DNA of 64,000 nt from Fistulifera solaris (lineage: Eukaryota): positions 310,001 through 374,000 of the forward strand of contig AP026173.1 in NCBI GenBank assembly GCA_030295235.1. The letters are read 5' to 3'. The notes under the pieces are model-generated. The model was not told the origin of the DNA. It searched no databases and was given only the letters and a program-made list of their open reading frames with translations. Numbering within the stretch: the first letter of the stretch is position 1; each line of letters begins with the position of its first letter. Below, piece after piece: positions 5,503 to 61,109 of this stretch. Made by a program: the position numbers and the translations under genes.

Positions 5503-7035
5503 TCAACCGAACAAGCTGTCCGTCGAATCTGACCGGATACACGTGGATGGACTGTAGAGATCCTCGTCAAGACCAGACAGGGACAAGTCGAGCTCATTGA
5601 TCGACACGTCGTCATCGATAGTCAGCGACACAAGCAACGAATTCGACGAGATACCGTCAATGCACGAGATGTTCATTCGTTCCTGGACGCGCCGACGACA
5701 TCGAAGGTCCACACTCGCAGTCATCATCAAACTTGAAGCCTCGCTCCAAAACTAGCACCTCCGATGACTCCAAACACGAGGACTCCAACGCAGCTTCGCC
5801 CTCGGCTTTATCGTGAACATCGGAAGCATCTTGTAGCACCTTGCATGGCATTCGCGACAGAGGTTTCCGACTCTTCGTGAGCAACAACATTAAACTCATC
5901 TGCGTCCATGACATCGAATACCTCTGCAATGAGCGAATGCCAGGTAGCTTCATCATCAACATCACTTGCAACATCAACATCCTTTGTGGCGTCTGATAGA
6001 CTGACTCCTGCATACTTTGCGTAAAAATCGTCAATCATTTCGTCCGCGGCGAGTCCAAGTAGGCTACTGATATCATCATCCTTGTCACAATTATCATCCT
6101 TGTCACTCTCTTCAGCGAGCTCTGGGACGCTAACGGCTTCGTCGTCGTCATCATCTTCGATCGTGATGATTTCAGGCAGTTTCTCCGTGGCAACTTCAAC
6201 TCCAAAAACAACTGGATCTTCAACAGCAACACCACCACTGCGGAGCTTAACAACACTCGCTCCCAGTTCTGCGATCCAAGCGACTATTTGCGACGGTTTC
6301 ATGCCGGTACTCTCGACAAGGCCGTCAATTGCAGTTAAGTCGGGAGAAGAATTGTAATCATTCTCCTTCATCCAGTCCATCAACTTGTCGATCTGCCATT
6401 TCTCTAGCCCCTTACTACTGGCTGTAACAAGACGCAGCTGATTGATAGAAGAGGGGCCGTGATTGCTGGCCGGCAAACAAGAAGCGACGGGATGATGAGT
6501 GACGTTGGTTGCGACGCTGCATTCTTCGGTCCTTTGCGGTTTTTCTTTGAACCATCATCATTCGTTTTCGACCGCGAATACGGACGTTTTGCGAGAAGCA
6601 GCAGAAACAGCCGTTTCACCTCCCATCACTGCAGCAACAGCAGCAGCAACAGGATCAAGTGACGCTGCGGCCGTACCCGTAACGACACTCACCGACGCAG
6701 TACTCTGCGTCTGGAAGGAAGCCATATCACTCAATTCCTTTCTCAAAATCTTGAAACTGTCGTCAAGGATCGCGTCAATGGTCGTGAATTCACCGCGACG
6801 AACGACGCTATGCTCTGTGTGCTGCAAAGCCTTGGATTTGTCTCCAAAGCTAATTGCAATATTCACCGTCTCTTCGACAGAGAATTTGCTAGCAGGAACC
6901 CATTGCTTCGATTTCCACTGAGACCCAGTGCTCTTGCGAATATCCTCCTTCTTTTCGAGTACTTTGTTAGCTAACGACACGAGGAGCGGCAACTCCCTCG
7001 TGCCAAACGATAGGATTAATCTTGTTATCTTTCAT
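5503..7035 (-). CDS. Divergent TALE-homeodomain-like protein with acidic tail, copy 1 (frameshifted)
   Basis: Joined from ORFs 6558..6992, 5808..6476 and 5503..5730; start MKDNKINP at 7035; LEKWQIDKLMDWMKENDYNSSPDLTAIDGLVESTGMKPSQIVAW fits the TALE pattern; upstream GT-AG intron near 7105-7224. Confidence 0.65.
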
Positions 7036-10575: not shown

Positions 10576-12519
10576 CTATACGAGATCGTCGGCATTGGTC
10601 GGCGGAGTTGTCTCGTTCACTTCGATTTCGGCTTGAATTTCTACCTCAGCCTTTTGTGTTTCGTCTTGACTTCCATGGTTATCAGGCTGGACACGGGCAC
10701 CGCGAGCGAGGCAGTTAGGGCAGCAGTCTCGAATGAGATGATACAGGCAGTAGCAGACCGCAAAGAAAACGGCCCAGAAAGCAATGTCGGCCGAGCCGAA
10801 GTTCTTGAAGTCCAAGTTCATGTAGGACAATAATTTCGATCCGCCAGATTTGTTTTCCCCAGAGATTGTTGTTGATGGTATTTTGATGCTAGATTGAACA
10901 TGGTAGCATCCTCGAAACACCGTAGAAGCTTGAGAGGAACTGTCGGTTCGCCAGTTGTTATTCCAGGCTTCATGTTCGCGCTCATCTAAGCACTGACCTC
11001 CAACTCCGTCGTACACATCCATGACTAGGTTATCTTCGTTGCCAGCAACGAATCCCTCGTAAGAGAGACCGGCCAAAATGTCGGAGACATCGCCAGGAAC
11101 GGCAACAAACGAAATTCGCTTCTTGTTCACTCCATCTTTCGTGCACTGCCAGGCGGAATAACTTCGCATGTTGCAGAAATCAAAGTCAGCCAAATGCAAT
11201 GTTTCACTGCTTAGGCTAATGCGACCGTATTGGACGGACAGGTCAACTCGTACGCGATTCAAGTTCAAGTCGGAATCATCCATCAATGACGGGTAGCTGA
11301 AGTTGTAGCTCGGCATATTGTTAACAACCGTCACAATTGCTTCGTTGACGTTGTTCCATGTTGGGGCATGATTCACATGCTGGATATTCACCGTTTGCGT
11401 GGCAAGTCCGGACGCGGCGAGTGTACGCTGCTCCCACAATGCGACAACACGATACTGAAACGACTCGTTGGGCATTTCCAGGGACTCCCCGTAAGCGTTG
11501 GTCGATGGCATCGTGAAGAAATTATCCGACGGTCGTCGGTATTCAATCCACAGACCCGTCGAGTTCACAGGAATGGGAAGGCTATTCGCGCCTGACAACA
11601 GCTTGATTCCTTCGGTGTAAAGCTCTCCCATTGTCGGAATGCTTGCAATGTCAACGAACAGTGGCAACGTGGTAGTCGACGTGTTGGTTCCGCCCACCCA
11701 AATCAAGGTCGGCTCGCTGATCGGGGCATCTTGCTCGATCACGACAGCCTCCGAGGCTTGTGCTTCCAAATAAAGAGGAACAACCGCAGCTTCTCCAACT
11801 CCTTCTTCAAAGAGGTTCTGCACTTGCGTTGTTGTCAGAGTCTGATCAAAGAATGAGATTTGCCGAATGGATCCTTGAAACGGCACAGTGGTGGAGTCAC
11901 TCGCATCAATCTGAGGAAACAGTTGCATCGTCTGATTCATGGGCAGACGAGTCAAATCCGCCGAGTAGGGAATATTCTCCATGATCAGCTTTCCCTGCAT
12001 ATACAAGTTCGTCGAGGATCCCGATGTCGTGATGGTCAAGGACACGGGGACATTGTGTTGCGAGTCGTACTGTCCGATGCGAATCATGCGGCAGGACTGT
12101 GTCGCATCTTCAAAAGCAACGACCAGATTCGCTCCAAACTGCGCCACCATCAAAGAGAATCCATCGCAGCCTCCATCGGTCGGAAGCATGCGAGAGACTT
12201 GGCCCGATCCGAACGTCCAAATGGGCTGCAATGAGGGAATTTCATCCGCCGGAGGCACGGGCGCCGTGATCCAAGTCGACAAGGACCATTCATTGCTGTT
12301 GAGATGATCGCGGAAAGCATCCAAAGTCTGGGTGCTGCGGAGGCTGGTAGCCTGTTGATCACCGAGCTTGATTCCGGTGCTTTCATGGCACTCCAGGCCT
12401 TGAGGAGCGGCGGTAGGCTTCAAGAGTCCGAGTAACGATTCGCTGTTAGACGAGGCCGCCAAGCGCAGAGGATGGCAAGGCGTGAAGGTGAACTGTTCGA
12501 GAGGTTTGTATGATGACAT
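10576..12519 (-). CDS. LamG/concanavalin-A-like plus cadherin-like single-pass membrane protein, copy 1 (intact)
   Basis: Uninterrupted ORF from MSSYKPLE; WSLSTWI...FQGSIRQISFFDQTLTTTQVQNLF (LamG-like); VNIQHVNHAP (cadherin-like linker); TM IAFWAVFFAVCYCLYHLI. Confidence 0.7.
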   Translation of the reverse strand: MSSYKPLEQFTFTPCHPLRLAASSNSESLLGLLKPTAAPQGLECHESTGIKLGDQQATSLRSTQTLDAFRDHLNSNEWSLSTWITAPVPPADEIPSLQPIWTFGSGQVSRMLPTDGGCDGFSLMVAQFGANLVVAFEDATQSCRMIRIGQYDSQHNVPVSLTITTSGSSTNLYMQGKLIMENIPYSADLTRLPMNQTMQLFPQIDASDSTTVPFQGSIRQISFFDQTLTTTQVQNLFEEGVGEAAVVPLYLEAQASEAVVIEQDAPISEPTLIWVGGTNTSTTTLPLFVDIASIPTMGELYTEGIKLLSGANSLPIPVNSTGLWIEYRRPSDNFFTMPSTNAYGESLEMPNESFQYRVVALWEQRTLAASGLATQTVNIQHVNHAPTWNNVNEAIVTVVNNMPSYNFSYPSLMDDSDLNLNRVRVDLSVQYGRISLSSETLHLADFDFCNMRSYSAWQCTKDGVNKKRISFVAVPGDVSDILAGLSYEGFVAGNEDNLVMDVYDGVGGQCLDEREHEAWNNNWRTDSSSQASTVFRGCYHVQSSIKIPSTTISGENKSGGSKLLSYMNLDFKNFGSADIAFWAVFFAVCYCLYHLIRDCCPNCLARGARVQPDNHGSQDETQKAEVEIQAEIEVNETTPPTNADDLV

Positions 12520-13034
12520 GTTTTTTACGTTTGTCGAATTTTGTGAGAAGAAAATGCTTAGAGGTGCCCGTAAAACTTGGCGTTTCCAACTTTTTTCATG
12601 ATGGAAACGTTCATCTGACCGTTTCCATTCAGTCTTGGCGTTTCCGAACGTTTTCGATACCGCTTTTCGCATGCTCCTTAATTGCTTCGCTTTCCCTTGA
12701 TTCGAAGAGTGTAAACGTTTAGCATTGAATTAAATAAACAACCTTTTAGTTATCATCGATAAGAAGATAGAAGTTGTTCTTGAACGAATACAAGGAGCAA
12801 AATGCGTTATAGCATTCTTCTCATTGTTGTCTCTATAGTACATCAAACAGCCGTACAACAGAAATATAAGCGCGTCTTACCAGTACTCAATCATCTTATC
12901 TCCGGGTTCTTTGTTAGCAGCCGACAACGACGCGACGACTTTTACTAACAAGCATACCAGTATTGCAACTTATACTTCTGTCCTTTGAAGAAACATCTCT
13001 TATTCGTAATCATAAACAAACAGATTCAAAAGCC

Positions 13035-22622: not shown

Positions 22623-23460
22623 TTTGTTTGCTTTGCGATGCTGCGGACACTTGACTTTGTCAATTGTACTATTTGTAAGCGATTTCAAACCTTCAAAACA
22701 TCAAAAGCAAGCACAAATGTGAGTAAAGACTTCATCTTTCATGAAAAGAGACAAAAGAGTCCGAAAGTAGACGTTAATAAAGATCTTCATGGTACGTAGT
22801 AACTTACCTTTCAACACGGCGATTCCTTCGAAAAGTGCGAACAAGCAGCGAAAATGTACAGCAGCGGTACGGCTTAGATACAGTATCGTCGTATTTGTAG
22901 CGTATGTTGTATAATAGTAACGTAGCCTTGGTAGTCCTCGCCACGTACGCATACGTGGTACTCAAATCACGTAGCAATAATACACCGCAGCAAGCTTTAA
23001 CCAAAAATCACACCATGGTGTCTTTTTCGCTCTGAAAGCGACGTAATATCCTCTGATATGCCTTTGCATCATCACTCATCAACTCTTTATCGTCCTGGGT
23101 ATCGAGTATCGGTGTGGACTGTCGCGCCTCGCATTCCTGAGGAGTGAAAGAACTCGCCGTTACCTCGCGCGCGCTCGAGTGGTGTTCCTGGTTCACCGCA
23201 TCAAAAACAACTTATTTATCGTCAAACAAATCGTTAAAAGATGAAATTTACCCCGCTACCAAATTACTCTATTTCTTTTGATTAAGGGAAACAAAGCAAT
23301 TAACGAGTATGCGAAAAGCGGTATCGGAAACGTTCGGAAACGCCAAGACTGAATGGAAACGGTCAGATGAACGTTTCCATCATGAAAATGTTGGAAACGC
23401 CAAGATTCAGGGGCACCTCTAAGCATTTTCTTCTCACAAAATTCGACAAACGTAAAAAGC

Positions 23461-25403
23461 ATGTCATCATACAAACCTCTCGAACAGTTCACCTTCACGC
23501 CTTGCCATCCTCTGCGCTTGGCGGCCTCGTCTAACAGCGAATCGTTACTCGGACTCTTGCAGCCTACCGCCGCTCCTCAAGGCCTGATGTGCCATGAAAG
23601 CACCGGAATCAAGCTCGGTAATCAACAAGCTACCAGCCTCCGCAGCACCCAGACTCTGGATGCGTTCCGCGATCATCTCAACAGCAATGAATGGTCCTTG
23701 TCGACTTGGATCACGGCGCCCGTTCCTCCGGCGGATGAAATTCCCTCATTGCAGCCCATTTGGACGTTCGGATCGGGCCAAGTCTCTCGCATGCTTCCGA
23801 CCGATGGAGGATGCGATGGATTCTCTTTGATGGTGGCGCAATTTGGAGCGAATCTCGTCGTTGCCTTTGAAGATGCGACACACTCCTGCCGCATGATTCG
23901 CATCGGACAGTACGAGTCGCAACACAATGTCTTCGTGTTTTTGACCATCACGACATCGGGATCCACGACGAACTTGTTTATGCAGGGAAAGCTGATCATG
24001 GAGAATATTCCCTACTCGGCGGATTTGACTCGTCTGCCCATGAATCAGACGATGCAACTGTTTCCTCAGATTGATGCGAGTGACTCCACCACTGTGCCGT
24101 TTCAAGGATCCATTCGGCAAATCTCATTCTTTGATCAGACTCTGACAACAACGCAAGTGCAGCAACTCTTTGAAGAAGGAGTTGGAGAAGCTGCGGTTGT
24201 TCCTTTTATTTGGAAGCACAAGCCTCGGAGGCTGTCGTGATCGAGCAAGATGCCCCGATCAGCGAGCCGACCTTGATTTGGGTGGGCGGAACCAACACGT
24301 CGACTACCACGTTGCCACTGTTCGTTGACATTGCAAGCATTCCGACAATGGGAGAGCTTTACACCGAAGGAATCAAGCTGTTGTCAGGCGCGAATAGCCT
24401 TCCCATTCCTGTGAACTCGACGGGTCTGTGGATTGAATACCGACGACCGTCGGATAATTTCTTCACGATGCCATCGACCAACGCTTACGGGGAGTCCCTG
24501 GAAATGCCCAACGAGTCGTTTCAGTATCGTGTTGTCGCATTGTGGGAGCAGCGTACACTCGCCGCGTCCGGACTTGTCACGCAAACGGTGAATATCCAGC
24601 ATGTGAATCATGCCCCAACATGGAACAACGTCAACGAAGCAATTGTGACGGTTGTTAACAGTATGCCGAGCTACAACTTCAGCTACCCGTCATTGATGGA
24701 TGATTCCGACTTGAACTTGCATCGCGTACGAGTTGACTTGACTGTCCAACACGGTCGCATCAGCCTAAACATTGAAACGCTCCACTTGGCTGACTTTGAC
24801 TTCTGCAACATGCGAAGTTACTCCGCCTGGCAGTGCACGAAAGATGGAGTTAACAAGAAGCTTAATTTCGTTTGTTGCCGTTCCTGGCGATGTCTCTGAC
24901 ATTTTGGCCGGTCTCTCTTACGAGGGATTCGTTGCTGGCAACGAAGATAAACTAGTCATGGATGTGTACGACGGAGTTGGAGGTCAGTGCTTAGATAAGC
25001 GAACATGAAGCCTGGAATAACAACTGGCGAACCGACAGCTCCTCTCAAGCTTCTACGGTGTTTCGAGGATGCTACCATGTTCAATCTAGCATCAAAATAC
25101 CATCAACAACAATCTCTGGGGAAAGCAAATCTGGCGGATCAAAATTACTGTCGTACATGAATCTGGACTTCAAGAACTTTGGCTCGGCCGACATTGTTTT
25201 CTGGGCCGTTTTCTTTCGCGGTCTGCTACTGCCTGTATCATCTCATTCGAGACTGCTGCCCTAACTGCCTCGCTCGCGGTGCCCGTGTCCAGCCTGATAA
25301 CCATGGAAGTCAAGACGAAACACAAAAGGCTGAGGTAGAAATTCAAGCCGAAATCGAAGTGAACGAGACAACTCCGCCGACCAATGCCGACGATCTCGTA
25401 TAG
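23461..25403 (+). CDS. LamG/cadherin-like membrane protein, copy 2 (frameshifted)
   Basis: Near-identical to 10576..12519 in inverted orientation. Confidence 0.75.
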
Positions 25404-29392: not shown

Positions 29393-29749
29393 CTAGTCGG
29401 AAAGTTCGGCTTTTTACACAAGATCACGAAGAAAATAATAATAAGATAACAAATAATCAAATGGCTGCATTCGATCGACCGCTCTCGCGTCGTCGTTTAT
29501 TCGTTTTACTGGTAGCAATGATGATGCGACATGTCTACCACGAATTAAAATTCAGCATCAGTCACTAACTTTATCCTTATTAGGTTAGTATCACGCGCGA
29601 TCAAGCGCTTTTCTGTTTTCTTTTATTTTATTGCTTCCGAATGAATGCATTATTCCTCGCATTTGACATTAACAACACGACTTTCATGCGCACTCCCCGC
29701 AAACATTCGAGTCTTTCACTGCTCAAAGGAGACGGCTATACTGCAACAA

Positions 29750-30730
29750 ATGAAAACACAAAGCTGGTCGCAATTATTTCGGGCGCCGTTTCAAGCTGCT
29801 AGTGCCCCCAACAAGCCCCCGACACTCGATGACATTCCCGATCTGATCGATCAAATCATGCTGCATTCGAATAGTGAAACGCGAGCCGCCGCTGCAAAGC
29901 GAATTTACGAGTTATGCGATGTAGCGCACAAAGAAAATCGTGTTCCTATGGTTTGTAGCGCAAAGTACGATGTCTTGACGCCCTTGGCAAAGTGTTTGAC
30001 CCAGGATAGTGGAAAGGGACGTCACTTAGCTTGCTTGGCTTTAAACAACCTTTCGGTTCCACCAGAGAATCGACATGCCATGGCTCTCGGACCTGCTTCG
30101 AAAGACGTGATTGGGGCACTTTGTAGAGTAATCGCCGAAGACAAACACGAATCGTATATATGCTGCATTTGCCTTATGAATCTTTCTTTCCTCGAGGCAA
30201 GTATCACGTCCATCTTGCAGTATTCGCCTCCTCTCGATGACAAAGCTTTGAGTCCTCTGGATAATCCGAACTCTCTTCTTCGCGTCCTGGAAAAACTTCT
30301 TGCAAACGCGCCTGATGTGCCCAAGTCCGAATCCGGCAAATCAGAAACGGACAAATTACTAGCAGCTGCAGTCCCCAAGGCAAGTTCAAGCAAATCGGAA
30401 GCGGTGCGCTGGACTTGTGGTTCGTTGAAAAATTTAGCAAAAAGTGAGGAGAATGCAGCTTTGATTGGAAAGACGAACATTCCGAAGTACGTCGTGGAAA
30501 ATATCCGTGCCGCTACAGATCCTCCATCCCAATGGAAGTCCAATAGCCTGGAGGATTATGCTCTTTCCCTTATTCTCCATCTCGCTCAATGGCCAGTCTG
30601 TCATGAAACTCTCATTCGAGTTGGCGCTGAAGATGCTATCAAGCCTGTGGCGTCCATGAATGACCCAAGAGGTATTGAAGCCAAAACGGTTTGCGCTCTA
30701 CTGGAGGCGAAAAAGATGCGCTTGCGATGA
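29750..30730 (+). CDS. Armadillo-type helical repeat protein, short paralog of 34985..36821
   Basis: RIYELCDV.HK.NRVPMVCS, RHLACLALNNLS.P.EN, CCICLMNLSF, LKNLAKSEENAALIG; strongly similar to the downstream gene. Confidence 0.75.
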   Translation: MKTQSWSQLFRAPFQAASAPNKPPTLDDIPDLIDQIMLHSNSETRAAAAKRIYELCDVAHKENRVPMVCSAKYDVLTPLAKCLTQDSGKGRHLACLALNNLSVPPENRHAMALGPASKDVIGALCRVIAEDKHESYICCICLMNLSFLEASITSILQYSPPLDDKALSPLDNPNSLLRVLEKLLANAPDVPKSESGKSETDKLLAAAVPKASSSKSEAVRWTCGSLKNLAKSEENAALIGKTNIPKYVVENIRAATDPPSQWKSNSLEDYALSLILHLAQWPVCHETLIRVGAEDAIKPVASMNDPRGIEAKTVCALLEAKKMRLR

Positions 30731-34984: not shown

Positions 34985-36821
34985 ATGTAAGTATAATCAA
35001 AGCCTTACACGTTGTTTCTTGAATGGAATATCCGGTTTATTGGGCAGGCGCAGTTATTTCTTCTCGACTTTTCTGACGAGTCTTGTTCACAACATTTCTT
35101 CTTCACAGGGTCTCGTTCCGTCGCAAAAGAAGGAAGAATCCACTGACAAGAAGGCTGACACAAAAATGACTTCCAAGAAAGAAGACAAGGTACGTTTACG
35201 GACTCGTGATGATTTAGCGACGGATGAGTAAAGCAATTTCTCACTTTCTTTCATCATCAGCCCGTCACCAAAGCTGCTGCCCCCAGCAAGCCCCCGACGC
35301 TCGATGACATTCCTGATTTGATTGATCAAATGCTTAATTCGAATGGCGAAAAGAGCGCAGCCGCTACCAAGCGTATTTACGAACTGTGCGACGTCGGTCA
35401 CAAACAGAACCGTGTGCCTATGGTTTGCAGCGGAAAGTACGATGTCTTGACGCCCTTGGCAAAGTGCTTGACGCAGGAAAGTGGAGATGGACGTCACTTA
35501 GCTTGCTTGGCATTGAACAACCTTTCGATTCCCACGGAAAACAAACGTGTGATGGCTCTTGGACCGGCTTCGAAGGATGTAATTGGAGGACTCTGCAAAG
35601 TTATTGCCGAAGACAAGCAGGAATCTTATTTGTGCTGCATTTGCCTCATGAACCTTTCTTTCCTCGAGGCAAGCATTACGTCTATCTTACAGTACTCTCC
35701 TTCTCTTGATGGCAAAGTTCTGAGTCCTTTGGATAATCCGGATTCTCTTCTGCGCGTCTTGGAGAAGCTTCTCGCGAACTCACCGGCTGTCCCCAAGTCA
35801 GGATCGGGCAAATCGGAAGGTGTGCGCTGGGCTTGCGGTTTGATCAAGAACCTGGCGAAAAGCGAAGAAAATGCGGCTTTGATCGGAAAGACTGACATTC
35901 CGAAGTGCGTCGTAGAGAACATCCGAGCAACTACGGCTCCTCCCTCTCGCTGGACGTCCAACAGCTTGGAGGACTTTTCTCTATTTGTTATTCTGAACCT
36001 CGCTCAGTGGCCTGTCTCGCGAGATACCCTTATTCGATCGGGAGCTGTTGATGTTATCAAGCCTATCATGTCGGAGGGTGACCTCCAGGGACTCAAGGCG
36101 ACCATGGCCTGCGCGTTCCTTGGCGCCAAATGGGATGCTTTCCCAGATGGCGGCAATCCAGCCGCCAAGGCTGTGTCGGAACTCATGACGAACATTGTCG
36201 AAAAGAAGGGAAAAGACGGGCAGTACGCTTACGGAGTGTTCAAGCTGTACACTGCCACGAAAGCTTACCGTGATCTTGCCGTCTCTGCGGCCCGCGACGA
36301 CTCGGAAGGAACTGAATCCAACACGAAGGTGCTCGCTTTCCCCTCAGCAGTGGCCCTCTGCTTGCAAATTGTGTCCGATCTTGTGATCTCTGCTATGGAG
36401 GATTCCGAGGGTGGATCCAAGTATGTCCCCGATGCCATGTCTGCAGAATACGCTGTAGGTGCCTTCGAGGCTATGCTCCCAGCTATTCTTCAACCGGCGG
36501 AGCCATCACGTCAATCGGTACAAAGCGAGAAAGCCGCGAGTGAAATCAGTCAAATGTTCCTTACGTATGTTGACGTGTCAGGAACGACCGACGAAGCCAA
36601 GAAAAGTGCCAGAAGCGTCGCGTCTAAGCTCAAAGAGGCGACGGGCTCTGCTAGACCCATTCTCGAAATCTCGCACGACTTGTGGAATCAATACCGAAAG
36701 CGAGAGGGACAACCGTTGGATCAATTCATTTCCAGCGAGAAGGGCATTGAAGCGGATATGAATGGCCCGCTTGATTTCCCTTCCGTGTGCCAACTCGGAG
36801 GGCGGTTGCACCATCCTTTAG
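34985..36821 (+). CDS. Armadillo-type repeat protein with two 5' introns and a probable C-terminal CaaX motif (CTIL)
   Basis: Core ORF from 35318; introns about 34987-35108 and 35190-35260; removing one C near 36779 gives DFLPCANSEGGCTIL*. Confidence 0.75.
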
Positions 36822-37561
36822 ATGCAGTTCAAATAATGGTTAATAGTTGTTGTAGACGTGTGCTCCACGAAACAAAGATTTGTGCTCTTACGTAAAGATA
36901 AAAGGTAATTCACATTCATATTACTTTTGAAAGCGCATGTTGATTATGGGTTCTATGGCTAGTTACTTTTGAACAGAACTCAATTCCTCTAGTATCTTTC
37001 ACTTATCATGGGCTCAGGGGCAAAGCATAGCTTACTCGCTTTTGAGGGCCACCTATGCTATTTACAAAGTGAAGAGCTCGAAAGACCGGCTAAAAGATTA
37101 GTCGTATGATTTAAAGCACATGCTTTCTTTTCCTTGCGTCAATGAAATGAGCTCAAAATCCCTTTTTCAAGACAGCAGGTTTCATTCTTCTTTAGGTGAC
37201 CTTAGCAAATGTCGTCAGCGGCCAAGGGCATAAATAAGTCAGTGGGAAGAATTCTGCAACCACTCGCAATTAGATTGTGCAATAAACTGTAGAAAATACA
37301 GACGTGCATCTCGATCGTGCATCCGTAATTAGGACAAACCGGGACAAACGGTTTTTGTACTCAGCTGGTTAAGTAGGAAACGACATGTTGAAAAATTCGA
37401 CAGCATGATGAGTGCATTGTTGTGTACATTTCCTCATTTGAATCCAGTTGTTGTTGTTGTTGGTCGATCGCCTTGGTTTTTTACTCCTCGCGTTTCGTTG
37501 CCCTTCATCTTTCATTCAACAAATAACTAATTATATCCTTGAAGACAACGTCAATGCAAAT

Positions 37562-47555: not shown

Positions 47556-48802
47556 ATGCCTCCCCGGGAAGCCGTCGATGAACGACTCGAGGTTGTAGTT
47601 TCCGAATCCCCCATTGCTGTACGAAGACGACGATTGACGCCAACACCCTACACGGAATACAATCCACCTTTTTCAGATTCGAAACGACTCCGACGATCCC
47701 TGACGGGTGATATGACGACGACAGCGGAATGGGTCCAGCGCTGTTGGCAACTGCATTTTGGTGTGTCTCTTTCCGTTTTGATGTTTGGTTACTTCGCCAA
47801 TCAACCTGCCAGGTAGGTAAAAGGACTTTTGTCTGATAGACCGTGTATAGCAATTGTCTCTAACTTTTCATCTCGCAATTTGTTAGTAAATACATTCCCA
47901 TCGATCCGACTTTACTCGTAGGACAGGAATGTGAACGGGCCTTTCTGAATGTTCTATCCTCGTCTCTCGAGGATCCTTTCGCTACTGTGTGCTGTAATGC
48001 AGTCAATATACACGGTATTTGCAACAAGGTATGCTGTTTGATGTGTTGTTCTTCTCTTGTAATCCTAAAACTCATACCTTCACTCAATTCGATGTTTCAG
48101 ACAACACTACCCCTCGGAAGCCGACTCTCGCGTTTCCCGGAGGCGTGGTTAATTCCTTTATTTCCGTTAATACTACGTTGGTGTGTGAATCGGTGGAATA
48201 ATACTATACAAAACAACCACACCATGGTACGCCGACTGGTCCTTTACATAACAATGATGCTAATTCGTGGTGTCATACTGTATCGAGGAATGAATCAAAT
48301 GGAAAACTATTTTCATAGCACCGATGCTTCGTGTTGGTACCAAGAGTACTTACGGGAGGATCAAGCGACTTGTTATGGACGATCCTTTGACTTTTCGGAT
48401 CATGTGGTGTTGTATATGGCGCAAATACTCCCGATTTGTTTGGCCGAAACACTCGAATGCTTACAACAACCTCCTACACTGCCACCACGTCGTATCTTGT
48501 CGACACAAACCATGACATTGTTAACGAGTATGAATGGTGGCATCAATCCAGACGAGGAGACACCTCCGAAAAAGAAATGTCCGAGCGTGCGACCTCTCTC
48601 TGTCGTGATTGTATTCGGGACTCTTTACTTGTATTTGATCACGTTGTGGGGTTCATACCGTACCACGGCTTACTTTCATACGGGCCCTGAAGTCTTTATG
48701 GGATTTGCCGTGAGTCTTTTGCTGCAGTGGCCATTGTATCGTTTGCAATGTTCGGAGCAACCGTTTTTGCGTTATGTACAAGATTGGTTCTTTGGAAAGT
48801 AG
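47556..48802 (+). CDS. FIT/Scs3-like ER membrane protein (two introns, about 47813-47920 and 48029-48100)
   Basis: Several TM segments; FDFSDHVVL and TTAYFHT resemble the two His motifs of FIT-family proteins. Confidence 0.6.
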
Positions 48803-48873: not shown

Positions 48874-49705
48874 TTATGCATTCATGGCCGGAAACAATTC
48901 ATGACGACTCGCTTGTCCGAAATAAAGACCCGCCACAACCAAGAGTAGATTTTTAGCGGCTTTGTTATCGCTACACACCGCACGTTGTTGTGCGACCTTT
49001 ACAACAAGTCTACGTAGCGTGGCAGCATCTTGTCGATGCAGGGGCGTTTCCAGCCGCGCCAAGAGTGCATAGCACCACTCATAATATTGTAAAATTCCGA
49101 GTTGCGTGGAAGTAGCCAAATGTTGTAAGACACGACGAATCATGACTTGATCCAGTTGACACACCAGTTGCACCGTCGGCCTATGATACCCTTCCGGTGG
49201 CAGTGCGTCTTTCCAGGCGGCGCTAGTAGCCGCGTCGTCGTCGTCAATAGTTTCTTCAACCTGTCCGGTGCAAAACTGGATCCATCCAGCTCGATCTTTC
49301 ATGGTCGGAACGGCCCCCAGAAATCGATGTTCTTTTCCACCGACTCCTTGTTGATGACACACGCTTAAATACTCGCGTAATTGTACAAATTTCTCTAAAG
49401 TTTGCGCAATCCACGCGGTTTCATGGGGAATTCGTTCTTTCGGCAGGGGGAATTTGCGTGGACAATAGATACTGCAGGGAAGCCGCCGACCCGTCCAAAA
49501 CTTCATATCCAGCCTTGTAAGAAGAACGTTTTGCGTGTGAAGAAGCTACTAGGGATGTATCGGGAATACCGCGAGCTTGCTGGGCAACGAGTTGCAAATA
49601 CTCGGAAGCTTCCATAGTATCGACACTGTCAAACGAGATTTTGTTACTGTTATCGTCGTCGTCAAGGCGTCGCCGTTTCGTCGGTAAGCAGGGCTGTTGA
49701 GACAT
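48874..49705 (-). CDS. GEMIN2: Gemin2 / SIP1 (SMN complex), frameshifted
   Basis: EASEYLQLVAQQARGIPD, PTVQLVCQLDQ, WCYALLARLETPL...LRRL, VAGLYFGQ. Confidence 0.8.
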
Positions 49706-50053: not shown

Positions 50054-50905
50054 ATGAGACTGACTCTTAGTCGACAAAGGGCTTTCCTAGCAATGGCTCT
50101 ACCGACGGCATCTTCACTTCGTGGTGCATCACCACTTTTTGTTCGACGCTCCCACAGAATGAGCGGAACAGCAGGCAGTCAGGACTATTCCGAAGCGACG
50201 GCCAAGTATTACAAATTCAACGGCTGTTCGGACGACGAAAATAAGAGCTCTGTGACTGTCAACTTTAACACGGGTCACGTTTTGACAACCGATTTGCCCC
50301 TTCGTATGGGAGGAAAGGATCAGGCCTCGCAACCGGTCGAATGCTTGTTAGCGGCTTGGGCGGGATGTACGCAAGCCACGGCCTTATTTGTGAGTCGGCA
50401 AATGATGCGAGAGAATAAGAGTTGTCCTTTACTTGAACGACTGGAATTCGTGAATATTACGGCAACCCGAGATGAACGAGGAGCCTTGGCTTTGCCGATC
50501 CACGAAGATCCGCCAGTACCGAGTCGACTTCATACCCTCACAGGAAACGTTGTTGTGTGGCCCTCGTTCGACGAAGAATCGTTGCAATTGTTGCAAGAGC
50601 AAACCGAATTGCGATGTCCGGTAGCCAATATGCTGATCGCGAGTGGTTGTCGTATGAACGTGAAGTGGATCAATGGAGATGAAAAGAAAATAGAAGAAGT
50701 CTTTCCTAACAGGAACAAGATCAATGATCCATGCTATAGACGTCAACGAGTCGTCGTCTTCTTCGTAGTCATGCTACTCTCTAGAGATCCAGCAACACTT
50801 TTGCATAGTCGCTTCCGGAAAAGAACACAAGCAAGATTAAGGCTAAGGGTCAATTCAATCCCGCTCTCTCCCTTATTCCTTTCCACGTGGAAATTGTTCC
50901 CGTGA
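50054..50905 (+). CDS. OsmC/Ohr family protein (true stop may lie near 50690)
   Basis: TDLPLRMGGKD..SQPVECLLAAWAGC and RCPVANML; the tail after KWINGDEKK looks like non-coding read-through. Confidence 0.8.
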   Translation: MRLTLSRQRAFLAMALPTASSLRGASPLFVRRSHRMSGTAGSQDYSEATAKYYKFNGCSDDENKSSVTVNFNTGHVLTTDLPLRMGGKDQASQPVECLLAAWAGCTQATALFVSRQMMRENKSCPLLERLEFVNITATRDERGALALPIHEDPPVPSRLHTLTGNVVVWPSFDEESLQLLQEQTELRCPVANMLIASGCRMNVKWINGDEKKIEEVFPNRNKINDPCYRRQRVVVFFVVMLLSRDPATLLHSRFRKRTQARLRLRVNSIPLSPLFLSTWKLFP

Positions 50906-51188: not shown

Positions 51189-54100
51189 ATGACTTTATTG
51201 AATTCGTTCACACGCCGTTGCGTTCTTCTTCTTTTTTTTGCTGGGTGCCTTTTCTGCGGCAGCACCCGACTTTATGGGTATTCCCACGACGGCCGGACCA
51301 CTCGATGACGCCAAATGCAATGTCGAAGATTTAGAACAAGCCAATGATTTGCAACTGTTTGTCATTTTACAAGAATTGCGCAATACGACCTTTTTTCGCA
51401 ATTTCTTAGTCGACCTTGATCGTCCATGTCCCTTGCAGTCGTGGAGGAAAAAAGACAGCGAGCAGGAAGAAGAGGAGGAGGAATTTGAATGCGGCGGTAA
51501 TGAAGAAGCGGACGAAGATGCTGAACCCGCTTGTCATGTTGATCTTAGTTCGAATAGCAATCCCTTTTCGTCGAATGCCTTATTTTCCATGGCTACTACA
51601 GGATTCGAATCGAAGGCACAAAAGGATACGTTTAAGTGGCAGAAACAAACCGATATTGTGGTCAAAGACGAAGAGCCTTGCGAAGAACCGCTTCTGCCCG
51701 ATTCCTTTTGGATTGATATTTGCAGTCCTCCCGGAAAAACGGCGGAAGAAAAGCTTGTTAACTTGGCCATGAATCCCGAAAAGAATACAGGATACAACGG
51801 GACGCATATTTGGAAAGCCATTTATGAGGAAAACTGTTTAATGGTTGATGATACGAACAGCAAAGAACTGATGTGTCTCGAAGAACGTGTCTTGTACCGG
51901 CTGTTGTCGGGGCTGCACACGTCCACGACATTATCGATTGCGATGAACTACTATCCGCCATCCAAGCGAAAGGGACGAACCGATTACGAAGCCAATCCGG
52001 ACTATTTTATGGAGAAATTCCATGATAATCCGGAACACATTCGGAATTTGCATTTCTCGTACGTCGTCTTGTTACGCGCCTTGCAAAAAGCGGCACCGGT
52101 GCTGCACGATTTTGATATACGCACGGGGGATATTGTGGAAGATGAAACGGCCAAAGTGCTATTGCGTCGATTGCTGGATTCGGCCATTTTGCAGTCTTGT
52201 TCGAACGTTTTCTCGGCGTTTGATGAATCGCTCATGTTTCAGCAGGATACTCGTTTTGATGTTGTTACTTTGCAGAAGAATTTCAAAGGCGTCTTTCACA
52301 ATGTATCGTCGATTTTGGATTGCGTGCAATGTCAGCAGTGTAAATTGCACGGAAAGATGGCCATGTTGGGGTATGGGACGGCACTTAAAGTACTTTTCAT
52401 GAGAGAAGAGCCACCTGTTATGACTCGAAACGAAATTGTGGCGTTTATCAACACTATTGCGAAGTTCTCTGAAAGCATTCGTCAAGTCCGTGAACTTACG
52501 CATCTTTATTTAGAGAAACAAGAACAAAAAGTGGCCAAAATGAAACAGACAGCCGCCCTTCCGCAACATACCACAATTGCAAGTGGGGATGGAATTACAG
52601 TAGACGCTTTGGATGGTGCCGTGGGTCTCATTGCCAAGTTAGGTCAGGAAAATCTTATCGAATGGAAAAGAGAAGCTGAACTTGTGCAGTTGGCTCTGCA
52701 ACGAAATCCAGAGTTGTTGATTTTGGCAAAACATTACGGTAACGACGTGTCGAAATTTCTCGAACTGGCAAGTTCGATCGGATTAGTCGATACAGAAGCG
52801 CCACTTCCAGATGCCATCATCGTAGGAAGTGGTTTGGCAGGCCTATCGGCCGCTCTCAACATTCTTGATCGAGGCGGAAGTGTCGTGATAATCGAAAAGG
52901 AACACCTACTTGGTGGAAATTCGAACAAGGCTAGCTCTGGTATCAATGCGTACGTCTCACCTGAAGAAGCTGGAGCTGACTCCTTGGATTCATTTCGAAA
53001 TGACACTACCCGTTCAGCTGGGTCGTCCGCCCGTCAAGATTTGATTGATGTGTTGGTTACTAACAGTGGGTCGGCTGTCACATGGCTACGCGAGCGAGTT
53101 GGTGTAGACCTTTCGCTGAAGGCACAGCTGGGTGGCCATTCCTCGAAACGTACACATCGGCCAAGCAACGGTATGGCGGGTGCAGAAATCATTTATGGTA
53201 TGCAGAAGGCTGTCAGAGAGTATGAGCAGACTGGTCGTGTGAAAATATTACTTGATAATCGAGTGAGCTCGCTAGTAACGGATGATAACGGTGCTGTAAT
53301 TGGAGTTGAATGTATCAATGCTGGAACAGACGAGGCATACAAGCTACATGCACCTAATGTAATTTTAGCTACAGGTGGATTCGCTGCTGATCGTTCCTCT
53401 GGATCTTATCTGGAACAGTATCGACCTGAATTGTTGAAGTTCCCCACGACTGCGGGCCCATTCTCTACCGGTGATGGAATCTCCCTTGCAAGAACTTTAG
53501 GTGCGGGAACTGTTGACATGAGTAAAGTGCAAGTGCACCCAACTGGTTGGGTCGATCCTAAAGATCCCGACAATACAAGTAAAGTCTTGGCGGCTGAGCT
53601 TATGCGGGGCGTTGGGGGCATTCTTATCAACAAAGAGGGGGACAGATTTGTCAACGAACTCGGAACAAGAGCACACATCACGGAACGAATGCTCTCTCAT
53701 GACCCCATTTACGAGAAAACAGGTGCATGGGATAAGAGTCGGCCGGTACCAACTTTCTCGCTCGTCCTTTCGTCGTCTGCTGCGGAAGAGGCTAAGAAGC
53801 ATGTGGATTTGTACAGTCACAAAGGTTTACTTACTCGAATAGAGGGTGTGTCTCTTCTTGCACAGTGGATGAATGTACCGAAAGCGAAACTAGTTAAGAC
53901 TTTTCAAGATTACCTAAATGCTTCCAAGGCTGGAAGTGATGCATTCGGAAGAGTTACTTTCCGCAATTTACCGGCCGAGTCGTTGGAAAATGAAGTTTTC
54001 TATGCAGGGACAGTGACACCTGTATTGCATTATTGTATGGGAGGGATTACAATTGACACCGAAGGGTATGTGTTGAATGTGAACGGTGAACGAATACCTG

Positions 54101-54511
54101 GTCTGCATGCAGCGGGGGGAAGTGACCGGGGGTGTTCACGGCGTAAATCGACTGGCTGGGAATTCGCTACTAGAATGCACTGTCTTCGGATCATTAATTG
54201 GACGCAGAATTCCGATCGCAAACCCAGTTAATAGCGGGCCCAAACAAGGTCAGGGAATAAAATCCAACAAAGACACCTTGCTACGCAACGTGTCATCAAC
54301 TGAGCTTCAGCAGCACAATACTGAAGATGATTGTTGGGTTGCAATTCATGGCGTCGTGTACGACCTCACAGAATTTGCAAGTGAGCACCCAGCAGGTCCT
54401 GAGTCTATTTGGAGTCTGGCTGGAGGCGACGGAACCGAAGCTTTCGATGCTGTGCACAATAAAGGACTACTTGAAGACTTTGCCGAAGATCGAATTGGTC
54501 TGCTCTCATAA
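51189..54511 (+). CDS. Ero1 - soluble fumarate reductase (Osm1/flavocytochrome-c type) - cytochrome b5 fusion
   Basis: Ero1: NPEKNTGY, IYEENC, CLEERVLYRLLSGLHTS, DCVQCQQCKLHGK. FRD: GSGLAG, GGNSNKASSGINA, GGHS..RTH, QVHPTG, ELMRG, HYCMGG, GVHGVNRLAGNSLLEC. b5: CWVAIHGVVYDLT..EHPAG..FDAVH. Indels at the T-run near 51235 and the G-run near 54117. Confidence 0.92.
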
Positions 54512-56032: not shown

Positions 56033-57617
56033 ATGAAAGATAACAAGATTAATCCTATCGTTTGGCACGAAGAGTTGCCGCTTCTCGTGTCGTTAGCTAA
56101 CAAAGTACTCGAAAAGAAGGAGTATATTCGCAAGAGCACTGGGTCTCAGTGGAAATCGAAGCAATGGGTTCCTGCTAGCGGTTTCTCTGTCGAAGAGACG
56201 GTGAATATTGCAATTAGCTTTGGAGACAAATCCAAGGCTTTGCAGCACACAGAGCATAGCGTCGTTCGTCGCGGTGAATTAACCACGCTTGACGCGATCC
56301 TTGACGACAGTTTCAGGATTTTGAGAAAGGAACTGAGTGATATGGCTGCCTTCCAGACGAAGAGTACTGCGTCAGTGAGTGTCGTTACGGGTTCGGCCGC
56401 AGCAGCGTCACTTGATCCTGTAGCTGCTGTTGCTGCAGTGACGGGAGGTGAAAACGGCTGTTTCTGCTGTTTCTAAACGTCCGTATTCGCGGTCGAAAAA
56501 GAATGATGATGGTTCAAAGAAAAACCGCAAAGGACCGAAGAAAGCACGCGTCGCAACCAACGTCGCTCAACAGCCCGTCGCGTCCCGCTTGCCGGCCAAC
56601 AATTCGCGGTCCCTCTCTTACTCCCGATCGACCAGCTGCTTCCTGTTACAGCAAGTAGTAAGGGGCTAGAGAAATGGCAGATCGACAAGTTGATGGACTG
56701 GATGAAAGAGAATGATTACAATTGTTCTCCCGACTGGGCTGCAATTGACGGCCTTGTCGAGAGTAACGGCATGAAGCCATCGCAGATAGTCGCTTGGATC
56801 GCAGAACTGGGAGCGAGTGTTGTTAAGCTCCGCAGTGGTGGTGTTGCTGGTGAAGATTCAATTGGAGTTGCAGTTGAAGTTGCAACCGAGGGAGAAACAG
56901 CCAGAAATCATCACAATCGAAGATGATGATGACGACGACGAAGACGAAGACGTTAGTGTTCGGAGCTCGCTGAAGAGAACGACAAGGATGATGATATCAG
57001 TAGCTTACTTGGACTCTCCGCGGACGAAATGATTGACGACTTTTACGCAAAGTATGCAGGAGTCAGTCTACCAGACGCCCACGGAGGATGTTGATGTCGA
57101 TGTTGCAGGTGATGATAATGATGAAGCTACCGGTACCTGGGATCCGCTCATTGCAGAGTTCTTCGTTATGATGAACGTAGACGAGTTAGATGTTGCTCAT
57201 GACGAAAAGTCAGAGCCCTCTGTCGCAAAGCCGTGCAAGGTGCAACAAGATGCTTGCGACGCTCACAGTAAAGCCCGCAATGCATTTGAGTCCGAGGGTG
57301 AAGCGGCGTTGGAGTCGTCGTGTTTGGAATCACTCGAGTCGTTGGAAGAGCTAGTCTTGGAGCTTGGCTTCAATTTTGATGATGACTGCGAGTGTGGAAC
57401 GTCGAGTTCGTCTGCGTGCGTCCAGGAAGGAACGAAGGACCCGTGCATTGACGGAAAGTCATCAAATTTGTTGCTTGGACCGTTGACTTCCGATGAAGAT
57501 GCGTTGATCAAGGAGCTTGCCTTGTCCCTGTCTGGTGTTGACGAGGATCTTTACAGTCCATCCACTCGTATCCGGTCAGATTCGACGGACAGTATTTTCG
57601 GTTGCTTGCTCCCTTGA
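56033..57617 (+). CDS. Divergent TALE-homeodomain-like protein, copy 4 (frameshifted)
   Basis: MKDNKINP at 56033; LMDWMKENDYNCSPDWAAIDGLVESNGMKPSQIVAW; ends FGCLLP*. Confidence 0.65.
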
Positions 57618-58255: not shown

Positions 58256-59162
58256 GCTTCACCTTGATGCAGCGATCGGCAGTTTTCTCGTCACTGGCGA
58301 GCTTGATTCGCAATTCAGGCTCTTGACAGCCGCAGAAAAGGAGGACCACCACCTGCTTCTTCACCGCTCCGCAGAATAGAATCCCAAAGACACGGCTTAA
58401 GCGCAGATTGCAGCGCTCCTCGGCACTATTTCATGTTCATGCGACGACGAGAAGGCAAATCAAACGAACGAAATAGTCGGAAGGAACTTTTGAGACGTCA
58501 ATAAACCACGACGACGCGCACTCGAGCGCATGCTACGCAATCGAGTTTTCATCCTCTTACGTGTGCGAGGCACGACGGACTGCGCCGGTACTCGATACCC
58601 AGGCGGATAATGCGTAGTTGCTTGATGATACAATGGCGTGTCAGAGGATTTAACGTTGCTTTGAGAGCAAAGACAACACCATAATATTATATACTCTATA
58701 AGGTTACTCACTTTTTTGTTTCCAACTTTCGCAAGGAACCCGGAGATGGAAGTGAAACATGATCTAAGTAGTTGTGCGACACGATCTACATATCGACAAT
58801 TGTCCACCTATTTTCGTTCTATAGCTGTTTGTACTTTCGAAACAACAATGAGAAATAGAATGCTCGCACGCGCAATAATCTCGCATCATCGAAAAGACCT
58901 CCTTTTACTTGTATCGTCAATCATTACTACGAGTATGAGAGTTGTTTATTCACTTCAGTGCTGAACGTTTACACTTTTCAAGTCAAGGAAAAACGGAGCA
59001 ATACATGAGCATGCGAAAAGCGGTATCGGAAACGTTCGGAAACGCCACGACTGAATGGAAACGGTGAGATGAACGTTTCCATCATGAAAATGTTGGAAAC
59101 GCCAAGATTCAGGAGCACCTCTAAGCATTTTCTTCTCACAAAGTTCGACAAACGTAAAAAAC

Positions 59163-61109
59163 ATGTCATCCTACAAACCTCTCGAACAGTTTACCTTCAC
59201 GCCTTGCCATCCTCTGCGCTTGGCGGCCTCTTCTGACAGCGAATCGTTGCTCGGACTCTTGCAGCCTACCGCCGATCCTCAAAGCCTGGAGTGCCACGAA
59301 AGCACCGGAATCAAGCTCGCAGATCATCAAGTTGCCAGCCTTCGCAGCACCCAGACTCTCGATGCTCTCCGCGAACATTTAAACAGCAATGAATGGTCCG
59401 TGTCGACTTGGATCGCGGCGCCCGTTCCTCCGGCGGATGAAATTCCCTCATTGCAGCCCATTTGGACGATCGGATCGGGCCAAGTCTCTCGCATGCTTCC
59501 GACTGATGGCGGCTGCGGTGGATACTCTTTGATGGTGGCGCAGTTTGGAGCGAATCTCGTCGTTGCCTTTGAAGATGCGACACAGTCCTGCCGCATGATT
59601 CGCATCGGGCAGTACGAGTTGCAGCACAATGTCCCCGTGTCCTTGACCATCACGACATCGGGATCTGCGACGAACTTGTATATGCAAGGAAAGCCGATCA
59701 TGGAGAATATTCCTTACGCTGGCGGATTTGACGCGTCTTCCCATGCATCAGACATTGCAATTGTTTCCTCAGATTGATGCGAGTGACTCCACCACTGTGC
59801 CGTTTCAAGGCTCCATTCGGCAAGTTTCTTTCTTTGATCAAACTCTAGCAACAACGCAAGTGCAAAACGTCTTTGAAGAAGGGGTTGGGGAAGCTGCGGT
59901 TGTTCCTCTTTATTTGGAAGCAAAGGCTTCGGAGGCTGTCCTGATCGAGCAAGATGCCCCGATCAGTGAGCCGACCTTGATTTGGGTGGGCGGAACCAAC
60001 ACGTCGACTACCACGTTGCCACTGTTCGTTGACATTGCAAGCATTCCGACAATGGGAGAGCTTTACACCGAAGGAATCAAACTGTTGTCAGGCGCGAATA
60101 GCCTTCCCATTCCTGTGAACTCGACGGGTCTATGGATTGAATACAGACGACCGTCGGACAACTACTTCACGATGCCATCGACCAACGCTTACGGGGAGTC
60201 CCTGGAAATGCCCAACGAATCGTTTCAGTATCGTGTTGTCGCCCTGTGGGAGCAGCGTACACTCGCATCGTCCGAACTTGTCACGCAAAAGGTGACTATC
60301 CAGCATGTGAATCATGCACCGACATGGAACAACGCCAATGAAGCAATTGTTACGATCGTCAACAATTTGCCGAGCTACAACTTCAGCTACCCGTCATTGA
60401 TGGATGATTCCGACTTGAACTTGAATCGCGTACGAGTTGACTTGACTGTCCAACACGGTCGCATCAGCCTAAGCAGTGAAACGCTCCACTTGGCTGACTT
60501 TGACTTCTGCAACATGCGAAGTTATTCCGCCTGGCAATGCACGAAAGATGGAGTTAACAAGAAGCTTAATTTCATTTGTTGCCGTTCCTGACGACGTTTC
60601 TAACATTTTGGCCGGTCTCTCTTACGAGGGATTCGTTGCTGGCAACGAAGATAACCTACTCATGGATGTTTACGATGGAGCTGGAGGTCAATGCTTAGAT
60701 GAGCGCGAACATGAAGCTTGGAATAGCAACTGGCGAACCGATAGCTCCTCTCAAGCTTCTCACGGTGTTTCGAGGATGCTACCATGTTCAATCTAGCATC
60801 AAATTACCATCAACAACAATCTCTGGGGAAAACAAATCTGGCGGATCGAAATTATTGTCCTACATGAACTTGGACTTCAAGAACTTCGGCTCGGCCGACA
60901 TTGCTTTCTGGGCCGTTTTCTTTGCGGTCTGCTACTGCCTGTATCATCTCATTCGAGACTGCTGCCCTAACTGCCTCGCTCGCGGTGCCCGTGTCCAGCC
61001 TGATAACTATGGAAGTCAAGACGAAACACAAAAGGCTGGGGTAGAAATTCAAGCCGAAATCGAAGTGAACGAGACAACGTCGCCGACCAATGCCGATGAT
61101 CTCGTGTAG
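59163..61109 (+). CDS. LamG/cadherin-like membrane protein, copy 3 (frameshifted, most diverged)
   Basis: Colinear with copies 1 and 2 from MSSYKPLE to NADDLV*. Confidence 0.75.

Follow-up and report, generated by a model that had tools for sequence, protein, structure and literature searches.

A fused Ero1, fumarate reductase and cytochrome b5 gene of Fistulifera solaris as a probable intramolecular thiol-to-fumarate relay

The window analysed here is a stretch of 64,000 nucleotides from Fistulifera solaris (assembly GCA_030295235.1, contig AP026173.1, positions 310,001 to 374,000 of the forward strand), and positions 51189 to 54511 of it hold a gene in which an Ero1-type thiol oxidase, a fumarate reductase and a cytochrome b5 appear to be joined. 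The locus raises the question of whether this is truly one protein and, if so, whether the protein can form disulfide bonds with fumarate rather than oxygen as its final electron acceptor. A sequence-only reading had proposed a chain running from protein disulfide isomerase (PDI) through Ero1, possibly b5, and the reductase to fumarate. Analysis of the gene, its second genomic copy and its relatives showed that the fusion is real and is not special to this genome, and it is probable (roughly 0.6) that the protein acts as an intramolecular thiol-to-fumarate relay in the endoplasmic reticulum (ER), with the b5 domain as the most likely bridge. The protein is comparable in its working to yeast Ero1 together with Osm1, yet it is not a canonical Ero1, not a strict Osm1 and not an Fcc3. 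Its features are listed below, with conservation given for 134 rows that were chosen at less than 75% identity from 203 full-length relatives.

51189..54511, + strand: whole gene, intron-free, encoding leader, Ero1, helical linker, reductase and cytochrome b5; about 1,106 amino acids with the two slips discounted
51189..51264, + strand: signal-peptide-like leader from ATG 51189, with a hydrophobic core and small residues ahead of the likely cut (hydrophobicity only)
51232..51239, + strand: run of eight T with one surplus base (51232), an assembly error
51316..52524, + strand: Ero1-fold domain (PF04137, 280 bits, cut-off 27; model compared with 3ahq)
51490..51534, + strand: putative shuttle cysteines, spaced C-x13-C within an acidic loop (equivalence suggested by position and by the C-[HS]-V motif that follows)
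51772..51918, + strand: Ero1 FAD-binding motifs NPEKNTGY, W, S and H, the usual Arg being Lys here (alignment to human and yeast Ero1)
52321..52341, + strand: inner active site CVQCQQC (CxxCxxC), three Cys in 134/134 rows
52600..52790, + strand: conserved four-helix linker domain, no family assigned (profile match in 126/134 rows)
52810..54214, + strand: soluble fumarate reductase flavoprotein of Osm1/Fcc3 type (5glg match; TIGR01813)
53536 (His), 53596 (Glu), 53605 (Arg), 53668 (Arg), 54028 (His) and 54149 (Arg), + strand: reductase catalytic residues
54114..54119, + strand: run of six G with one surplus base (54114), inside the reductase domain, an assembly error
54284..54508, + strand: cytochrome b5 domain, haem ligands His 54386 (HPAG) and His 54455 (PF00173, 74 bits)

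The claim that the Ero1 and reductase parts share one uninterrupted frame, with no indel behind the fusion, was borne out. The frame 51202-54228 is free of stops over 1,009 codons and, in a Pfam scan of the frames of the window, holds both ERO1 (PF04137, 280.4 bits against a cut-off of 27, 51355-52488, profile 2-354 of 354) and FAD_binding_2 (PF00890, 244 bits, 52810-54117). A hydrophobic leader begins, as had been proposed, with the ATG at 51189 in a third frame and joins the main frame once the extra T is removed; the frame 54083-54508 carries the end of the reductase and the cytochrome b5 domain (PF00173, 74.1 bits against a cut-off of 23.7). The three frames are separated by the extra T in the run 51232-51239 and the extra G in the run 54114-54119. 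A single slip in a G run ahead of b5 had been claimed; the G slip is real, but there are two slips, and that in the G run lies inside the reductase, ahead of its EVTGG and NRLAG motifs and its last catalytic Arg, not at the boundary with b5. The motifs reported earlier (CxxCxxC, HPT, E..R, HY, NRL.G.SL and both b5 His ligands) were found at the places named for them.

Both slips are single-base homopolymer errors of the assembly, because contigs built from reads lack both bases and because a second copy of the gene is one open frame. Of four public runs, the two that span base 51232 (X1 and X4) omit it at full depth, and all four omit base 54114 at full depth; these contigs come from a single study, and the run that holds the gene best may be the source of the assembly. 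The genome (62 contigs, 51.7 Mb) contains a syntenic second copy on contig C29 (G000:C29), a single stop-free frame of 1,170 codons with its ATG at L006:4254 and a product of 1,103 amino acids. The other coding-region indels between the two copies are all of 3 or 6 bases, and comparison of 960 codons gave 795 identical, 131 synonymous and 34 non-synonymous. The read evidence, the open copy on C29, the indel lengths and the excess of synonymous changes together mark the gene as intact, free of introns and under selection. A fusion made by the assembly or by gene calling is ruled out by the reads, by the C29 copy and by the same domain order in 203 of 203 relatives. A pseudogene or a programmed frameshift at the G run was rejected since all four runs are without the extra base and a slip of this type occurs in an adjacent gene as well; an intron at either slip is unneeded, and no joints are listed in the read evidence. 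None of the runs listed is recorded as RNA; three that are guessed to be RNA cover the gene only and were not counted as proof of expression.

The Ero1 part has the expected fold and an unusual outer cysteine pair. The closest relative among the matches listed (P0004, 1,105 amino acids, 92% identical) was modelled, and its Ero1 domain matched human Ero1 (3ahq) with Z 31.5 and an rmsd of 3.2 over 294 aligned residues, and 1rp4 with Z 29.7. The three Cys of the inner site, the two of the loop and two further Cys are invariant in all 134 rows, the most distant of which have about 35% identity. Within the FAD motifs Glu, Thr, Trp and His, which we take to be among the residues that touch FAD, are likewise present in 134/134, and the motif Arg, Lys in the window copy, in 101/134. 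The spacing of the loop Cys is 13 in the window copy and 10 to 43 across the 134 rows, and is never the 4 of the canonical CxxxxC pair, which the canonical rows and the stand-alone Ero1 of this genome keep. The putative shuttle loop is acidic, with pLDDT below 50 in the model, and in 59 of the 119 diatom-type proteins scored the shuttle region holds at least seven Cys, mostly through a second C-x13-18-C loop. By its sequence, the Ero1 part is a member of the ERO1 superfamily that falls in a separate subfamily and is not a canonical Ero1, because its outer shuttle pair is C-x10-43-C rather than CxxxxC. It shares the fold, the inner active site and the residues that bind FAD with human Ero1-alpha (3ahq), plant EROs and the canonical pair of this genome, which differ from it in having CxxxxC and in standing alone. 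The His of the CKLH motif was tried as a mark of the fused type and dropped, as the canonical Ero1 of the genome has the same His.

That canonical pair is encoded on C19 (858790-859815) and C20 (769859-770883; L007, L008), each gene with one intron and CxxxxC, and is very divergent in the tree. The genome also has an Erv1-like pair and several thioredoxin-Erv (QSOX-like) genes (C9 168002-169607, C10 181902-183488, C15/C16 and C17/C18; L014-L019), two of these standing tail to tail on C9 and C10.

The best solved match to the reductase part was yeast Osm1 (5glg, E 4.7e-81), on which the P0004 model superimposed with Z 38.8 and an rmsd of 3.4 over 451 aligned residues; P0004 scored 366.8 bits with TIGR01813, against a cut-off of 285.45. 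The six residues of the fumarate site (His, Glu, Arg, the catalytic Arg, His and Arg) are present in 134/134 rows, the catalytic Arg aligning with R326 of Osm1, the residue of the mutant 6ku6. There is no His for covalent FAD, unlike in complex II (GNSNKASSG here, SHTVAAQGG in the succinate dehydrogenase flavoprotein of this genome). Succinate dehydrogenase and L-aspartate oxidase were rejected as identities, both scoring far under their cut-offs and both having separate genes in the genome. The fused copies were the only Osm1-like reductases found in the genome, a count that is a lower bound. In the b5 domain both His, the predicted ligands of a haem b, are present in 134/134. The positions of the free-flavin pocket of Osm1 (W295, F297, L298, F362 and Y363), read by hand from the alignment, are S, V, L, L and Y in the window copy. 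The F297 site is T, I or V in 126 of the 134 fused-clade rows and F in 19 of 27 outer-clade reductases; the F362 site is F in 4/134 as against 18/27, and few outer-clade rows retain W295 either (3/27).

Other architectures were seen around this reductase. Proteins that lack Ero1 but carry b5 two or three times (P0147, P0150, P0155, P0164, P0170 and P0171) lie near the diatom fusion in the tree, and P0257 (1,252 amino acids) has 11 cytochrome b5 domains. An Osm1-like reductase is joined to acyl-CoA oxidase in P0228, to an FAD-linked oxidase of the D-lactate dehydrogenase type in P0272 and to flavodoxin in P0251, possibly because the module has been taken up by other flavin oxidases as an electron sink, though these are single rows that may be merged gene calls like P0247. 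As to fusions of reductase, b5 and Erv, no Erv domain was found in the 20 proteins scanned.

Between the Ero1 and reductase parts lies a linker of about 60 residues (126/134 rows) that is predicted to form four helices, with pLDDT near 90 in the full model. It had no NCBIfam match, no Pfam match on the window frames overlaps it and a search of the Atlas gave no usable match; modelled alone it reached pLDDT 73, and its best structural match (Z 5.0) did not stand out. At the N-terminus, a hydrophobic window was found in 138 of the 184 relatives that start with Met, compared with 173 of 3,680 internal control windows (4.7%), and of 40 inspected among the 46 without such a window, many begin inside Ero1. 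Two N-glycosylation sequons of the Ero1 part are kept in 123/134 and 121/134 rows and one in the reductase in 61/134. The window copy has neither a membrane tail nor a KDEL-type end, and KDEL-like retention ends occur in 4 of the 203 full-length relatives. A hydrophobic 19-mer beyond residue 80 occurs in 14/203, and since these are mostly the strand-helix of a Rossmann fold, no membrane anchor is evident.

The fusion is widespread. A search with the window protein gave 475 matches among 7,999 scored candidates; all 120 matches listed carry ERO1 and FAD_binding_2, 114 of them also b5, and the nearest named homologues are diatoms. A second search from a diplonemid copy gave 240 matches, with ERO1 and FAD_binding_2 in 114 of the 120 listed, and this search and one of 50%-identity representatives reached identities of 35-45%. 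The 372 proteins collected included 203 full-length three-domain proteins, several of them named complete transcript open reading frames, and the order Ero1, reductase, b5 held in all 203; the b5 domain is doubled in 11. Look-up of 29 different proteins named as carriers diatoms, Hondaea, Incisomonas, Chromera, two Amoebophrya, Paulinella, Guillardia, Prasinococcus, Diplonema, Lacrimia, Namystynia, Pyxidicula and Savillea, together with a cluster that includes an Ostreococcus lucimarinus protein, thus covering diatoms, other stramenopiles, alveolates, Rhizaria, cryptophytes, green algae, diplonemids, an amoebozoan and a choanoflagellate. Among the best matches listed no full-length fusion was named from an animal or a land plant; as the searches list best matches only, absence from a group is not thereby shown. 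Contamination is unlikely to account for this range in the diplonemids, cryptophytes, Amoebophrya, haptophytes and the Savillea group (4 rows), because they form clades of their own, and it may account for the single rows from Pyxidicula, Namystynia and Batrachochytrium salamandrivorans. The last of these (P0168), a full-length fusion with a doubtful chytrid label, groups with a non-diatom row among protist sequences and is possibly a contaminant in its assembly.

Database records already hold the architecture, for example 'ero1-like protein precursor fumarate reductase, partial [Chrysochromulina tobinii]', Hondaea GBG31049.1 and Chromera A0A0G4GP76; in such records the Pfam architecture is precomputed and the names are automatic, usually for one domain. 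No paper describing the fusion was found in a literature search judged mostly by titles and the openings of abstracts, with subscription journals largely outside it.

Phylogenetic trees were consistent with a shared history of the joined domains. A quick, unrooted tree of 98 Ero1 domains, in which the canonical row of this genome is partial and on a very long branch, separated 65 fused and 16 short fusion-type rows from 17 canonical rows by a branch of SH-aLRT 99. In the tree built from 86 reductase domains, 27 non-fused rows grouped together with support 100. On one shared set of 50 fused proteins, 9 of the 10 Ero1 splits with strong support recurred in the reductase tree and 12 of 18 in the reverse comparison, with one conflict. 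A functional link of the domains is likely from these comparisons, because the whole order is kept over very distant eukaryotes and because the Ero1 and reductase trees agree. Six abundant clusters (P0401, P0402, P0404, P0405, P0410 and P0449), sister to the fusion of the Ostreococcus cluster, have a fusion-type Ero1 that ends right past its domain.

The nearest functional precedent is the yeast pair. According to Kim et al. 2018 (PMC6242907), the binding between Ero1 and Osm1 of yeast is weak (Kd 150-200 uM), and the pair makes disulfides with fumarate in vitro under oxygen depletion; Ero1 was docked on Osm1 at the site of the Fcc3 haem domain with the flavins more than 20 Å apart, and a missing mediator was allowed for. 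The fusion shares with yeast Ero1p and Osm1 (1rp4, 5glg) the CxxCxxC Ero1 fold, the FAD motifs, a non-covalent flavoenzyme, the fumarate-site residues, a secretory-type leader and the proposed net reaction. It differs in being one chain rather than a weak complex, in the added b5 haem and four-helix linker, in its C-x10-43-C shuttle in place of CxxxxC and in having the aromatics of the free-flavin pocket mostly replaced; a strict Osm1 has that pocket and no haem domain, and the fusion, with its altered pocket and its b5, departs from it on both points. With Shewanella Fcc3 (1qjd) it would have in common a soluble, exported fumarate reductase fed by an attached haem domain, and it shares the same catalytic set (H365, E378, R381, R402, H504 and R544, five of them named in PDB titles, the numbering of H504 and R544 being as we assume it). 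In Fcc3 the haem domain is an N-terminal tetrahaem c domain, whereas the fusion has a single C-terminal b-type haem and Ero1 at the N-terminal place, its match to Fcc3 starting at Fcc3 residue 122-127 with Ero1 and the linker ahead of the flavin domain. Fungal and protist fumarate reductase-b5 proteins (in the Atlas 'fumarate reductase (NADH)' or 'Osmotic growth protein') have the reductase followed by b5, as in the fusion, but lack Ero1, and most form the separate, fully supported group of 27 rows.

These comparisons suggest that the gene product would be one soluble protein of the ER lumen that makes disulfides and sheds the electrons on fumarate. By Ero1 chemistry, a PDI-type client would reduce the flexible Cys pair, which would hand its electrons to the CxxC beside the Ero1 FAD. 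The reduced Ero1 flavin would then be re-oxidised within the chain, instead of or besides by O2 with formation of H2O2, most likely by single-electron steps in which the haem of the tethered b5 passes them on to the reductase FAD, which would in turn reduce fumarate to succinate. The b5 domain is thus a candidate haem bridge for the flavin gap of more than 20 Å left open in the yeast pair, and the design probably lets disulfides form with fumarate as the electron sink in place of oxygen. We infer the ER location, the PDI-type client, the intramolecular transfer, the b5 role and the low-oxygen or peroxide-avoiding use; PDI is a candidate client, the shuttle loop differing from the canonical one. 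The reverse direction, succinate reducing disulfides, was set aside on grounds of redox potential.

Several observations weigh against this relay. Besides the fusion, the genome has retained a canonical pair of Ero1 genes as well as QSOX/Erv genes. The full P0004 model (pLDDT 77.5, pTM 0.57) gives no domain arrangement; a complex prediction of Ero1 with reductase-b5, which did not use the alignment, scored 0.00 and counts neither for nor against the relay. The changes in the free-flavin pocket track the clade and not the presence of b5, which 6 of the 27 outer-clade rows carry, and 199 of the 203 full-length relatives lack a retention-type end; yeast Ero1 is usually without KDEL as well. We know of no established supply of fumarate to the ER lumen. 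In the available text of PMC6242907 the Ero1-Osm1 contact is helpful and not required, as the electrons can travel on free flavin. Some carriers are plankton of oxic waters, and three fumarate reductases of Diplonema papillatum showed no response to oxygen, which of them is the fusion not being stated in the available text (PMC8611851). Since carriers include oxic plankton and the Diplonema reductases are not oxygen-regulated, the role may be as much constitutive avoidance of peroxide as anoxia.

The domains have also come apart. Nine reductase or reductase-b5 proteins without Ero1 nest among the 50 fused rows of the reductase tree. Fourteen stand-alone fusion-type Ero1 rows nest among the fused ones, a fused-only clade being rejected with p-AU 2.1e-6 in a test of 55 rows (25 of 65 fused, 14 of 16 stand-alone and 16 of 17 canonical) picked after the tree was seen. 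Five Pavlovales-type proteins (P0385, P0390, P0383, P0384 and P0386) consist of a fusion-type Ero1 and the linker, ending alike just past the latter with no reductase; these are likely natural fissions, and the other stand-alone fusion-type rows may be truncated gene models. The simplest reading of the trees would be a single origin with co-inheritance, followed by splitting on several occasions. Of the chain proposed by the sequence-only reading, the single polypeptide, intact catalytic parts, leader and yeast precedent stand, while its description as hard-wired is weakened because the same type of Ero1 occurs without the reductase, reductase-b5 occurs without Ero1, and the genome has canonical Ero1 and QSOX-like genes.

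Three other explanations have to be weighed against the b5-bridged relay. The same chemistry could be wired otherwise, by direct contact of the flavins or by diffusing free FAD, with b5 an accessory inherited with the reductase that serves as an electron buffer or as an entry for other ER donors. This is unlikely, though yeast Osm1 works with Ero1 by free FAD or contact and has no haem domain, Ero1 in the fusion is N-terminal to the reductase, at the place of the Fcc3 haem domain and at the Ero1-Osm1 docking site, and reductase-b5 proteins without Ero1 are common; the haem of b5 proteins, moreover, lies near 0 mV, uphill of the reductase flavin. The invariance of both haem ligands, the doubling of b5 in some relatives and the free-flavin pocket aromatics, which are mostly lost, speak against it. 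Mere co-targeting, in which Ero1 runs on O2 and the reductase-b5 part is a general luminal electron sink for other donors, would account for the repeated separation of the halves and for the joining of reductase modules to acyl-CoA oxidase, FAD-linked oxidase and flavodoxin (the single, possibly merged rows above). It is quite improbable, as very distant lineages share both the domain order and a dedicated four-helix linker, the fusion Ero1 has its own derived Cys pattern, and the yeast proteins interact functionally as separate chains.

A relay for another client or place, finally, would have the altered and often duplicated acidic loop pick a partner other than PDI, or would place the action of the protein later in the secretory route or within the periplastid space. 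The shuttle spacing and the Cys-rich loops of about half the scored diatom-type proteins fit such a change of partner, most relatives have no retention signal or membrane anchor, and a signal-bearing reductase of Paradiplonema, not proven to be the fusion, was seen by mass spectrometry with its location given as 'unknown' in the available part of PMC12697944 (supplement 1). This explanation is nevertheless very unlikely: carriers include diplonemids, a choanoflagellate and an amoebozoan, which lack complex plastids, some KDEL-like ends do occur, and a missing KDEL is the usual state of yeast Ero1. The relay through b5 in the ER is preferred to all three.

Beside the fusion, the window holds further genes. 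A Gemin2/SIP1 gene (PF04938, 48874-49747, minus strand) is split into two frames by an extra G at 49446 and is one frame of 327 codons in its C29 copy; this is the same type of homopolymer error, and other frameshifts on the contig are therefore doubtful. An OsmC-like gene (PF02566, 50045-50905, plus strand) adjoins the fusion upstream, its end altered by an A missing at 50686 relative to C29, and the position of this member of a thiol peroxidase family beside the fusion may be chance. A weak FIT match (PF10261, 16 bits, below cut-off, 47864-48802, plus strand) is also syntenic on C29. Repeated gene families are present, with similar frames at 10579-12729 (minus), 23386-24896 (plus) and 59088-60588 (plus), and further pairs at 29645-30727 and 35228-36892 and at 5811-6554 and 56510-56926.

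The electron acceptor of Ero1 when oxygen is short is still an open question outside yeast, and in the available text of PMC9516139 an Osm1-like acceptor has yet to be identified for plants. The yeast route across the flavin gap is itself unresolved in the available text of PMC6242907, and a one-chain Ero1-reductase-b5 protein offers a single molecule on which the route could be measured, with genetically tractable algae and protists among its carriers. If the relay is true, it would be a candidate source of disulfides for expression hosts that needs no oxygen and makes no peroxide. Its spread over distant eukaryotes bears on oxidative folding in early, low-oxygen eukaryotes; because the trees have no root, presence in the last common ancestor and early spread by transfer cannot be told apart. 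It is a tentative and somewhat doubtful, though possible, extension that the fusion represents a second, old Ero1 subfamily of at least eight major lineages, perhaps already present in the last common ancestor, that animals, land plants and most fungi have lost; the loose Ero1-Osm1 pair of yeast would then be a parallel or a remnant. Such a self-contained thiol:fumarate oxidoreductase with a haem bridge would make ER disulfides without oxygen or peroxide, and would tie secretory folding to fumarate/succinate exchange across the ER membrane.

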